Assembly: GCA_002269645.1 (NCBI GenBank)
Contig: NIVC01001673.1
Coordinates: 62,001 to 126,000 of the forward strand
Source of the DNA: Macrostomum lignano
Lineage: Eukaryota
Reading direction: 5' to 3'
Length of the DNA: 64,000 bases
The translations under genes and the position numbers were made by a program. The notes under the pieces were generated by a model that was given only the letters and a program-made list of their open reading frames with translations, ran no database searches and had not been told where the DNA came from. Shown here in pieces: positions 36,273 through 49,158 of the stretch (positions are counted from its first letter, which is position 1; every line of letters starts with the position of its first letter).

Positions 36273-36312
36273 GGTGGTAACCTTCAAATTTTTTTTATAT
36301 TTTAGAAAAAAA

Positions 36313-39300
36313 ATGCCAAAAGCCAATCCAGCAAAAGATTTAGTCAACAAATACTTTTCAAAAGGCGTCTCATTTCATTTCATTTCATTTCAAGACAAAA
36401 GTAATTTACTAAGAGAAGCATGTAAACAAAAGTTTAAAACCGACCCTGGTCACCTGGGAAGCTATGAAAAACAGTTGGAAATCATCAATCAATTAGAATC
36501 CAACCAGTATGCGCCTATAAAAAATCCTGCAAAGGAACACCAAGAGAGGAGTCGCAACTTAGTTAACAAATATGAAACTCTCACTGGTGAAAAGCAAAGT
36601 ACCCACAAAATAAGCAGGAACAAGAGAAATTAGAGCAATTAATCCATTTAAAAGAGTCGGAGCTTGCCATTGAAGAGATTAATTTTGCACAGAGGAAGTT
36701 TACGGAACATTACATAGAGTACACAATCCCAATTAAGGATACCACTGCAAACATCTACGACTATAAAGACAGCATTCAATCAGTTGTTGATCACACACTC
36801 AAAACACGCAAGACCTTTAAACTACAGATATCATTCAAGATTGCATTTTATATGCCTGCAAAACCCACTGAGCATCTCGAGTATTACATGACAACAAAGG
36901 CAAAGCCATTCACCCCTACAGACACACTGGATCCTTTCCTTCAAGATGTCACTAAGAAAATTGAAGCGTTTACATCCAGAGGTTCCGGATGGGTCGTGGG
37001 AGGGATTCAAAGAGCAACTGTTATGGTCATGAAATATGACCCACTTAAAGCCTCCTCTTATATAGAGCTCCCGCATAAGCTTGCCGGCAAAAAAGCTTGC
37101 ATAAATGTTAAAAATAAAGACAATTGCTGTGCTCTATGGGCAGTTCTTTCTGCACTTCTTCATGATAGTGTCCCTCACCACCCTGAAAGAACCTCAAATT
37201 ATCAAAATTATTTCAACTACTATCTCATTGAATGCGAAAAGAAGGGAATCAGGTTTGACAAAGGAGGCTTGGCGATCTCTTAGATCCCTAAGCTAGAAGA
37301 AGTGTTTAATAACAAAATTAGAATCACAGTCTTTGAGTGGAGTGAAAAAACTGAGAAAGTTCAACCGGTCAGATGTAGCAGACGTTTTAGATCCTGAGGG
37401 GAAAAGGCGGATTGAAGTGGATCTTCTAGTGATTGGTAATTTACTAGAGGAGGCTCACTATTTTTGGATTAAAGATCTTTCAAGACTCATTCACAAGCAG
37501 TTGAATAATCATCACGAGGCTGTTGCCATCTGCCGCTTGTGCCTTAAGCATTACAGTGGACCTGAACGCTTTGAAAAACGAACAGAGCATGAATTATCAT
37601 GCGAGGATCACCCGACAAACTGCTCTCTTCCTTCAGCTGAAGAGAAGTATCTCCGGTTTAAGAACTATCATAAGATGGAGAAGCTCCCATTTGTTGTATA
37701 TGCTGATTTCGAATGCTCAATCGTGCCAGAAACTCAAAAACAAACTCAAACTAAAAAACAAACTCAAACTCAAAAACATGTCCCCAATTCAGTAGCATAT
37801 GCCTTTATTACTACAAAAGGACTTGTTGAGTATAATTATTTCTTTCGAGAGCAGTGTGTGGAGCAGTTTATTGCCAGAATGTTAGAGTTGCAAAAAGTTA
37901 TTAGCACCCTTCAGTCTGTTCCAATAATGATGACTGAGGAGGATGAAAGCAATTTCCTATCAGCAACTCATTGCCACATCTGCAGGAAACAGTTAACTTA
38001 CACTAATATTAAAAACCCCATCGTTAGGGACCACTGCCACTATACTGGGAAATTTAGAGGTGCAGCGCATAACACCTGTAATCTAAAGCTAAAATCGAAC
38101 ATTCATGATCTAACAATATTTTGTCACAACGCAAAGAACTATGACATGCATTTAATAGTTGAAAAAATCGGCATGATTCCAGACATACACCTTGATTGCA
38201 TCGCAGAGAACAAGGAGAAGTTTAAGTGTGTTGATATTAAACAGGATAATTCGGGTACAGGTAAAATAAGACTGAAGGATTCATATCAATTTCTAGCTGC
38301 CAGTCTAGACGAACTAAGCAAGAATCTAAAAGATGAACAATGTACATATACAAAGATTTTTGCAAGTAAAATTAACAACACTGATGAATCATTTAAACTT
38401 TTAAGAAAGAAAGGCTTCTACCCCTATGAAAATATTACTGGTTATCACGTATTTGAAGAAGGTTTACCACCACAGGAGAAGTTCTTTTCAAAGCTAACAG
38501 ACTCTGGAATCTCTGACAAAGACTATGAGCACGCAAAGCATGTCTATAATTACTTTAATTGTCAAAACTTCTTCCAGTATCACCTGCTTTACCTCTTCAC
38601 AGATGTGTTTCTGCTGGCTGATGTGTTTGAAACCTTCAGATACACCTGGTACACAGCATATGGCCTCGATCCAGCACATTATGTGTCTCTGCCTGCCACT
38701 AGCTGGGAATCTTTGCTTAAAATGAAATGGGATCAAGATCCAGATTGGTACATTGAGCTTCTTACAGACATTGACATGTACAATTTTGTCGAATCGTCAA
38801 AACGAGGGGGGGTCTCAATTTGCGTTAACAGGTATGCAAAAGCAAACAATCCCTACATTGAATCTTACAATAAGGAGCAGCCCTCAAACTACATTACTTA
38901 CTTGGACGCTAATAATCTCTACGGGTGGGCGATGAGTCAAGATCTTCCAGTTAGAGATTTTCGATGGCTACCCTCATCAGAACTAAAGTGGGACTTTTCA
39001 TTGGCTGCCATTTATGAGGTTGATGTTTACATTCCACCAGAGCTTCACGACTATTTCTCTGACTTTCCACCCTTCCCAGAGAACATCAAGTGCCCGAAAA
39101 TAATCGAAACTCCCAATGGAACTTGGCACCTGTCAGGAACAGAAAAAGAACATACAGAGAAACTAACACAGAATCTAAACAACAAGACACGTTACAAAAT
39201 CCATTACAAACTGCTTCAGTATTTTATCTCACTTGGTTGCAGGGTCACCAAAGTTCACAGGGCTCTTACATTTACAGAGGAAGCGTGGATGGAACCCTAC

Positions 39301-40170
39301 ATTGATAAGAATACCCAGTTTAGGACCAAAGCAACCAACGACTTTGACAAGAACCTCTTTAAGTTGGCCAACAACTCTGTCTATGGCAAGACTCTTGAGA
39401 ATGAGAGGAAAAGAACAAACCTGAAACTTGTTACCTCATCAGAGCCTGATGTTATTCAGGCAAATATGTCAAAGCCAACATTCAAAGAACTCCATATCTT
39501 TAATAGCTACTTAGGTGTGATCATATTTTACAAAACCAAGGTGACGCTGCGCAAGCCGATCTATACAGGTGTCACTGTACTCGACGAATCAAAACGTCTG
39601 ATGTACCAGTTCTTCTATGGTATGAAGCAGCAGTACAAGGATAAAATGAAACTTTTGTACACTGACACAGACAGCTTTATTATGGACATTCAAACAGAAG
39701 ACATTTATCAGGACATGCTGCAGCAAAAAGATTTGTTTGACTTGTCTGAGTATGATGAATCTTGCAGGACACAGAATGGCGATCAAGTGTTTGACGCCAC
39801 TAACAAGAAAGTGATTGGGAAAATGAAGGACGAGATTGCTGGTGACATAATCACTGAATTCATTGAGTTGAGAGCAAAGTCCTATTTTGTAAAATGTGAG
39901 TCGTCAGACCCAATTAAAAAATCAAAGGGAATTCCGAAACGTGTGGTTAGGAAGGAAATTAATGAAGCTGAATACAGAGACGCTTTGAATTGCAACAAAA
40001 AGACATCACATGAGTTCTCAAAGCTACAATCTAAAAACCATATTATTCACACAATTCAGCAAAAGAAGATTGGACTGTCAGGTGCAGATAACAAGAGATT
40101 CATTTTTGATGACAATATTAACAGTCTACCGTTCGGGCACTGGAGGTTAGGCTTAGGAGGTGGAGGTTAG
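36313..40170 (+). CDS. Protein-primed family B DNA polymerase (pPolB) with endonuclease VII-like insert; frameshifts near 36595 and 37388, TAG at 37281-37283
   Basis: GSGW...YDPLKASSYIELP; RDHCHYTGKFRGAAHNTCN; HNAKNYD; KGFYPYE; YLDANNLYGWAM; KLANNSVYGK; YTDTDS. Confidence 0.93.
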
Positions 40171-40243
40171 ATTCGGGCACTGGAGATTAGGAGATTAGGA
40201 GGTTGGGTTTAGGTTTAGGAGAAAGTTTAATAAAACTAAAAAA

Positions 40244-47726: not shown

Positions 47727-48305
47727 GTGAACGATTTGATTAATTTAATACCTTTAGAGCAGAGAGATGGACTCCAACAATTGTTTGAAAATTTCAAAGA
47801 GGAGGAAATACAACACGATTTGGCTCGCATGGAAGGACAAACCCAACGCGATATTTCCACCTACGAAGCACGAGTAGCTGCTGTTTTCCAACGCCTTCGT
47901 GCTTCGTATGGAGTCGAAGTTCAAGCGCCAACAAGGGAGCTATCAGTGATCGAGGAAAGTATGCGCGCGTTGAACTTTCGTCATCTACCCACTGTTCTAC
48001 CCACTGTACAGAACATGCTGGCGGAATTATTTTACGATAAGCGCACATTAATTGTGTCATTTTACATCGGCTCCATCATTCACCGACTCAAACGTACACT
48101 AAAGTCGGTTCGGAATATAATTCGACGGCTTAATCTACAAGTGTCGAGGCAGACTTTGGACAAGAAGTTGAGAGTGTACGACTTATTGACAGAATTTCCG
48201 GCCCTACAGCGCTGCGCCGTACCAGTTAGCTTCGTTCTGGAAAATATGAAGCTCATTCGGGACGAGGTGCGCTACCAGGCGGATGCGGCGACGTGGAGAC
48301 AGTGA
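47727..48305 (+). CDS. Orphan helical protein, ~192 aa (start uncertain)
   Basis: Open frame with protein-like composition inside the Polinton; non-ATG start in the ORF track. Confidence 0.55.
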   Translation: MNDLINLIPLEQRDGLQQLFENFKEEEIQHDLARMEGQTQRDISTYEARVAAVFQRLRASYGVEVQAPTRELSVIEESMRALNFRHLPTVLPTVQNMLAELFYDKRTLIVSFYIGSIIHRLKRTLKSVRNIIRRLNLQVSRQTLDKKLRVYDLLTEFPALQRCAVPVSFVLENMKLIRDEVRYQADAATWRQ

Positions 48306-48520
48306 CGGTTACGGGTTATGACTTAGCCAATTTTAAATACGATCGCATTAGCAGTCTTGAGTTATTTTTAGTAACAAGTCATTTCCACTCACTCTTTTGT
48401 ATAATCGTATCAACCAATGAGAACGCTTAGAGTGGCTACCAGTGGGGCCATTTTTTAATGTTAGTAGAATGCATGAGAGGGTGAGACTTCAGTTCTCAAC
48501 CCTTCAAATTAGGCTTAATT

Positions 48521-48763
48521 TTAACGCAATTGCTTAATGATTTCTGCAAAGTTATAGTAGCTGTCGTAATCTTTTACGTAGGTTACTCCATACTTATGAA
48601 ACCAATGTCTTTGGAGAGCTATATTAATATTAGGGACATTGATATCAACGTCGGGCCAATATTTTTTCTTGTATTCGCTGCATTCTAGTTTGCATCGGTA
48701 CTTACTCTTGTAATTAGGCTCGTGCGCTTTGTAATAAGAACCTGGAGAGACAACTGGAAACAT
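48521..48763 (-). CDS. Small 80-aa Tyr/Lys-rich ORF
   Basis: AAAAATG context; its last ~30 nt are duplicated at ~47034-47065. Confidence 0.45.
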   Translation of the reverse strand: MFPVVSPGSYYKAHEPNYKSKYRCKLECSEYKKKYWPDVDINVPNINIALQRHWFHKYGVTYVKDYDSYYNFAEIIKQLR

Positions 48764-49158
48764 TTTTATTGAGAATTTATTATTTTTCGGAGGATGAGAA
48801 CCCTGGGTTAGGGGATTTAAAGTTTTAGGGATCTGGTTTCAACACTTCGCGTTGCGAATTGAATGTGGGGAAAAGAATGCAGATTATTTTCTGAATGTTT
48901 CGAAGATGCTATGGGTGGATTTGGAGCTGTTATGCTCAGAGCATAAACCCTCAGAGCATAACAGTAGGACACCTGTTATGCTCTGATTCTGTCAGGGATA
49001 ATATGGATGGATTTAATGGATTATGGAGGACGTTTTGTGAGCGAGTGCGACCCCCCCCCCTTTTTTTCTGATTCTGTCAGGGATAATATGGATGGATTTA
49101 ATGGGATTATGGAGGACGTGAAAAATTTTGTCCCAAAAGCCCCCTCATGCCTTCTACT

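Follow-up and report, generated by a model that had tools for sequence, protein, structure and literature searches.

A left-truncated Polinton from a high-copy, integrase-bearing family of Macrostomum lignano

Introduction

The passages of PMC8097293 drawn on here define an intact Polinton/Maverick copy by the presence of all ORFs, TIRs and a 6-bp TSD, and describe most genomic copies as degraded, a state that they call the rule. The corresponding part of 10.1101/2023.08.22.554363 gives lengths of 13-25 kb, TIRs of 100-1500 bp and TSDs of 5-8 bp. Two further systems are treated in the sections of PMC8502044 used here. Adintoviruses with PLA2X combine a pfam03175-type PolB, an rve integrase, adenain, an FtsK-type ATPase, a parvovirus-like PLA2 and a pX-like domain, the last two being associated with the disruption of membranes and with the virion core. 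The integrase-less MELD viruses of Hydra and Anelosimus are complete, ITR-bounded elements. Truncated Mavericks being the rule, any single truncated copy is unremarkable, and a missing integrase in one copy is uninformative until its sister copies have been checked.

Here, we analyze a stretch of 64,000 nucleotides from Macrostomum lignano (hereafter the window, part of contig C1673), in which a preliminary description had reported an endogenous Polinton-like virus with a complete, intact virion module but no integrase. Our preferred reading, to which we assign a probability of about 0.9, is that this element represents a high-copy, integrase (INT)-bearing Polinton family in a left-truncated copy with a broken polymerase gene, and that its left arm was likely lost by deletion or rearrangement after the insertion of a Gypsy retrotransposon and then of an RTE LINE.

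Comparison with Described Elements

The window copy belongs to the Polintons/Mavericks (class Polintoviricetes), all defining features of which are found at the level of its family. The protein-primed PolB (pPolB) is recognized by PF03175 and its catalytic motifs, although its gene is broken in the window copy. The rve integrase, found in 17 of 19 sisters, is deleted from the window copy, TIRs starting with AG/AGT occur in the sisters while only the right one is left in the window copy, and the 6-bp TSD, exact in nine of 12 sisters, is reduced in the window copy to a single target half. Major capsid protein (MCP), penton, packaging ATPase and protease are all present, the protease with a Pfam score below the cut-off. 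Like the Polintons/Mavericks portrayed in the cited passages of PMC8097293, the family combines pPolB, rve INT, protease, ATPase, MCP, penton, AGT TIRs and a 6-bp TSD, and its copy number of at least 98-117 lies near the upper end of the range given there. Its gene order, TIR-variable ORFs-PLA2-INT-pX-pPolB-PRO-ATPase-MCP-penton-TIR, differs from the vertebrate order. The sisters fit the length, TIR and TSD ranges quoted from 10.1101/2023.08.22.554363. The window copy itself, which has no INT, no left TIR and a broken pPolB, is not an intact autonomous Maverick in the sense of the same passages of PMC8097293.

Compared by gene content with the PLA2X adintoviruses, as presented in the sections of PMC8502044 used here, the family shares the type of PolB, the rve integrase, adenain, the FtsK-type ATPase, the parvovirus-like PLA2 and the pX-like domain. 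In place of the fused PLA2X of Alpha adintoviruses, however, the sisters encode PLA2 and the pX-like domain in two ORFs on opposite strands that flank INT. With the MELD viruses of Hydra and Anelosimus described in those sections, the window copy has in common virion genes and a PolB without an integrase, but those viruses are complete and bounded at both ends, whereas the window copy keeps a single end and has sisters that carry INT. An integrase-less lineage would show two termini and INT in no copy, and neither is the case here.

Organization of the Window Element

The limits previously assigned to the element, 36273..49158, are correct: 36273 is the first base past the Gypsy 3' LTR, and 49158 is the Polinton terminus, ending in ...CTTCTACT, the reverse complement of the AGTAGAAGG that opens sister copies. 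Between these limits lie pPolB, the protease, an A32-like ATPase, MCP, penton and six accessory ORFs. These and the adjoining features are as follows (a dot stands for no assigned strand).

27281..31147, +, RTE-type LINE with endonuclease and RT, 1223-codon frame and GAA tail; no TSD
31148..36272, +, Gypsy retrotransposon, 5' LTR and ~128 further bases missing
32859..33850,., 992-bp TG...CA insertion, probably a solo LTR, flanked by a 4-bp TSD and splitting the Gypsy RT
36146..36272, +, Gypsy 3' LTR, after the polypurine tract
36273..36277, +, first five Polinton bases, likely the remaining half of the Gypsy 5-bp TSD
36313..40170, +, pPolB gene, N-terminal part broken (PF03175, E 2.4e-17)
40244..40645, +, maturation protease, 133 aa (PF00770, E 0.0016, below cut-off; length equal in 3/3 sisters)
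40650..41318, -, 222-aa accessory ORF with a hydrophobic stretch
41401..42174, -, 257-aa accessory ORF, C-terminus unlike sisters
42191..42991, -, A32-like packaging ATPase, 266 aa (PF04665, E 5.3e-6)
43181..43585, -, 134-aa accessory ORF
43602..44822, -, Q/P-rich accessory ORF, ~406 aa (start inferred from sisters; a longer 545-codon frame overlaps MCP)
44853..46136, +, double-jelly-roll MCP, 427 aa (428 in sisters)
46158..47021, +, penton (minor capsid protein), 287 aa
47060..49158,., right end, ~2.1 kb, inverted copy of the sisters' left-arm sequence, TIR included
47829-48305, 158-aa variable ORF, in the extended right end
48521-48763, 80-aa ORF, in the extended right end
49159..49164, +, orphan half of the Polinton 6-bp target site, within a tandem-repeat element

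An empty copy of the target tandem-repeat element is present further down the contig, and the upstream half of the target repeat was not found in front of the RTE LINE. A 225-bp fragment of a Polinton terminus also lies further down the contig (L057:8654-8878).

Sister Copies Carry the Integrase

As had been noted, the window contains no Polinton integrase, and neither does the rest of contig C1673: tblastn queries with INT, PLA2 and pX of the family gave no match in the window or elsewhere on the contig. A left arm displaced to another part of C1673 was rejected on the same searches. The only integrase of the window is indeed that of Gypsy, and we rejected it as a stand-in, the Gypsy pol frame being split by the 992-bp insertion and its 5' LTR being gone.

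In the search of the same genome with MCP, the best 98 of 662 candidates were scored; they are 98-100% identical and 96 of them contain no stop. At least 97 other MCP genes are 98-99% identical to that of the window, 95 of these 97 being uninterrupted. The INT search, in which the best 117 of 1,708 candidates were scored, gave identities of 91-100%, with 104 free of stops in the match; the 98 MCP and 117 INT matches are lower bounds. Twenty left stretches were then chosen by MCP rank and position, blind to INT, of which 19 were obtained. INT lies upstream of pPolB in 17 of the 19, PLA2 is found in 16 and the pX-like gene in 15, and the two stretches without INT hold no element sequence as fetched and represent other truncated copies. 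Every one of the 15 stretches that reach the left edge of the window element ceases to align at 36273. The sister left arm (~4.5 kb; ~3.5-5.4 kb in the nine displayed) is composed of the TIR, an 80-aa ORF, variable ORFs, PLA2, INT (331-345 aa) and the pX-like gene (148 aa), with Pfam matches to rve (PF00665, E 2.2e-9), PLA2 (E 1.4e-13) and Adeno_PX (E 4.5e-7).

The INT-bearing sisters are 93-96% identical in DNA to the window copy. Among the 12 sisters with both ends seen, the 6-bp TSD is exact in nine, matches at five of six positions in one and is lacking in two; the TIRs, which begin with AGT, measure ~0.5-0.85 kb in seven of eight pairs and are interrupted in the eighth. With INT ahead of pPolB, with TIRs and with 6-bp TSDs, the sisters identify the window copy as an ordinary truncated Maverick, an outcome that the preliminary description had itself named as speaking against its reading. 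This young and abundant family lends itself to the question of whether animal Polintons form particles.

The slot between the TIR ORF and PLA2 is variable, with ORFs of 141-273 aa that differ among copies (left arms of L003, L004, L007, L008, L012, L016 and L019, and window 47829-48305), several of which share by eye a helix-rich pattern.

Loss of the Left Arm

The RTE LINE bridges a host exon (junction at 27280) and the Gypsy gag, its two flanks being unrelated. Complete Gypsy sisters have two LTRs, the 5' one lying ~128 bases ahead of the point at which the window Gypsy starts, and the place of this missing region is occupied by the RTE tail. The TSD of the Gypsy family is 5 bp (exact in five of eight Gypsy copies), and the five bases past the LTR end at 36272 mark the point where sisters join their left arm. 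Since the LTR ends at the arm junction and Gypsy generates 5-bp TSDs, we infer that the Gypsy insertion site lay between the pX-like gene and pPolB. The assembly contains the Gypsy-Polinton junction at one place and its predicted counterpart nowhere, and no orphan near-identical Gypsy 5' LTR was found among 43 matches.

Contig C1965 is ~97-99% identical to the left flank of the window, has no RTE LINE, and continues with host sequence past the 27280 junction. It is collinear with C1673 on both sides and without a ~52-kb block. This block extends from window position 27281 to ~79,700 (C1673:89,281-141,700), and C1965 has in its place ~5.6 kb that include the remainder of a Cys-rich host exon.

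The arm loss is most simply read as the outcome of a deletion or rearrangement whose breakpoint lay at the RTE LINE. A full element would have integrated into the tandem repeat by means of its own INT, generating a 6-bp TSD, as shown for the sisters and presumed for the window copy. Gypsy would subsequently have inserted between the pX-like gene and pPolB, at the junction observed today, and an RTE LINE would have landed ~128 bases inside Gypsy. Everything to the left of the RTE tail, namely the Gypsy 5' LTR, pX, INT, PLA2, the left TIR and the left host flank, would finally have been lost, probably through an RTE-associated target-site deletion or recombination between two RTE copies. These observations support the earlier suggestion that left arm and Gypsy 5' LTR disappeared together, both being gone behind the RTE LINE.

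The reverse nesting also occurs in this genome, where a Polinton of the same family lies within gag of the same Gypsy family in L065 (C4035) and L066 (C2219), at the same 6-bp site on both contigs.

State of the Virion Genes and of the Polymerase

As originally described, no interruption affects the genes for the protease (133 aa), ATPase (266 aa), MCP (427 aa) and penton (287 aa), whose lengths match those of the sister ORFs. The identities proposed for MCP and penton are upheld by fold matches of predicted structures: the MCP model, of low confidence (pLDDT 52.9), matches the double-jelly-roll capsids of iridovirus, mavirus and Sputnik (best E 8.5e-10), and the penton model (pLDDT 73.9) matches the mavirus penton (E 5.5e-9) as well as adenovirus pentons. 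PF21738 is carried by nine of nine database relatives of MCP; the penton has no Pfam match.

The terms "complete" and "intact" have to be abandoned. The window copy lacks two genes that the sisters have, PLA2 and the one for the pX-like core protein, its pPolB is split by two frame changes and a stop, its MCP is one residue short, and two accessory ORFs are altered. The absent MCP residue is present in all 10 other aligned sequences; the 158-aa ORF has an N-terminus 49 residues shorter than in two sisters, and the alignment of the 257-aa ORF to sisters ends after about residue 235. The 158-aa variable ORF also has a weak Tc3-type HTH match, below cut-off. Avoidance of GGNCC was not seen, with 21 occurrences for 21.3 expected.

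The pPolB frame changes lie near 36,590 and 37,380 and the premature stop at 37,281-37,283, which leaves the gene in three frames; the exonuclease and polymerase motifs are found within the open part, 37675-40170. According to the domain order in the portion of PMC11161782 used to place them, the breaks would fall in the terminal-protein/vOTU region. The stop appears in none of the run contigs among those covering the position, and the breaks may therefore be assembly errors or a rare allele dropped by the contigs. Judging from its sequence, the window copy would be unable to replicate or move, because it lacks INT and a second terminus and its pPolB is broken.

Alternative Explanations

The truncation could be an artefact of assembly, the contig having jumped between two RTE copies at a locus that in reality keeps the Gypsy 5' LTR and the left arm. 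The unrelated flanks of the RTE LINE, its lack of a TSD, the private letters of the window missing from run contigs at several places and the fact that, among the listed run contigs, none spans a junction would all fit such a jump. On the other hand, C1673 regains collinearity with C1965 downstream, and neither the counterpart junction nor an orphan near-identical 5' LTR (43 matches) turned up, and we consider an artefact improbable. A naturally integrase-less Polinton-like virus lineage, one of the explanations initially offered for the absence of INT inside 36273-49158, is refuted by the sisters, which are 93-96% identical in DNA and have INT directly upstream.

We regard it as very improbable that the copy has been retained to donate capsids, or that it was mobilized in trans as a non-autonomous element. 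Its four morphogenesis ORFs are full length, and TSD-flanked capsid-only derivatives occur elsewhere in the family (see below), but the copy has a single terminus, no TSD pair and a unique junction, which leaves the proposed mobilization in trans unsupported; moreover, PLA2 and the pX-like genes are missing, uninterrupted MCPs abound in the genome, and the insertion is already absent from contig C1965. The private changes of the virion genes are no more constrained than those of the broken pPolB, with pN/pS values, from small counts, of 0.38 for the four virion genes pooled (10 non-synonymous, 7 synonymous) and 0.20 for the open part of pPolB (8 non-synonymous, 10 synonymous), in a comparison relying on 3-27 sisters per site and on changes many of which probably predate the insertion. 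We also rejected a selective preservation of capsid genes over pPolB. An open pPolB frame of at least 1,250 codons without stop is found in 3 of 104 scored places, versus 96 of 98 MCPs without stop, but this contrast is not evidence because the MCPs are the best-scoring of 662 candidates and one third as long. The idea that the copy supplies capsids is thus tenable inasmuch as the four ORFs are full length, yet unremarkable, as 95 of the 97 other scored MCPs are uninterrupted too; on sequence grounds, it could be at most a redundant source of capsid proteins.

Terminus Copying and Palindromic Derivatives

The right end of the window element (47060-49158) is 91-94% identical, in inverted orientation, to left arms in C87, C326 and C3589, and 47062-48526 is absent from all 12 sister right ends of the first set fetched. 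This left-arm sequence inverted at the right end indicates that Polinton termini are copied onto each other in the family. Left-arm sequence at the right end was seen in the window and two other copies, and the 3' end of penton in the left arm of two others; copies whose TIR length varies through such copying are the window copy, L012, L065, L085 and L087.

Two palindromic derivatives represent the extreme of such terminus copying. An 11.3-kb capsid-only palindrome (C1652:28604-39932; L069, L070, L079-L082), with the same site in C276, has the order TIR-penton-MCP-ORFs-ATPase joined to inverted ORFs-MCP-penton-TIR. It is devoid of INT, PLA2, pX and pPolB, its 6-bp TSD is exact, and its arms are 99.7-99.9% identical. 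C1652 and C276 share the flanks, which lie in opposite orientation relative to the centre and point to one insertion site; the exact centre junction was found once. An 11.5-kb INT palindrome (C975:122373-133902; L100, L113) consists of two inverted left arms, each with TIR, PLA2, INT, pX and a cut pPolB, without capsid genes; its 6-bp TSD is exact and its inner arms are 99.97% identical. The flanks of the palindromes are repeated in direct and not in mirror-image orientation, which speaks against a sequencing artefact of the fold-back type.

Tentatively, and with more doubt than conviction, we propose that palindromic half-genomes arise in this family and become integrated as single units, in the form of snap-back defective genomes relying on functions provided in trans. 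For these palindromes, rearrangement in place after normal integration is as likely as insertion in trans, because each has a single insertion site so far. Palindromic, TSD-flanked half-elements bear on Polinton replication and on mutual complementation and, if the proposal is true, they would be defective-interfering Polintons that have become fixed in the germ line of an animal. A literature search by title yielded none on palindromic or snap-back Polintons, which is not proof of absence.

An internal 21-bp tandem repeat is located at 43034-43137 of the window. Polinton termini abut this repeat twice in one contig (L089, C1098) and the centre of the capsid palindrome is located there too, which makes it a possible hot spot of self-insertion.
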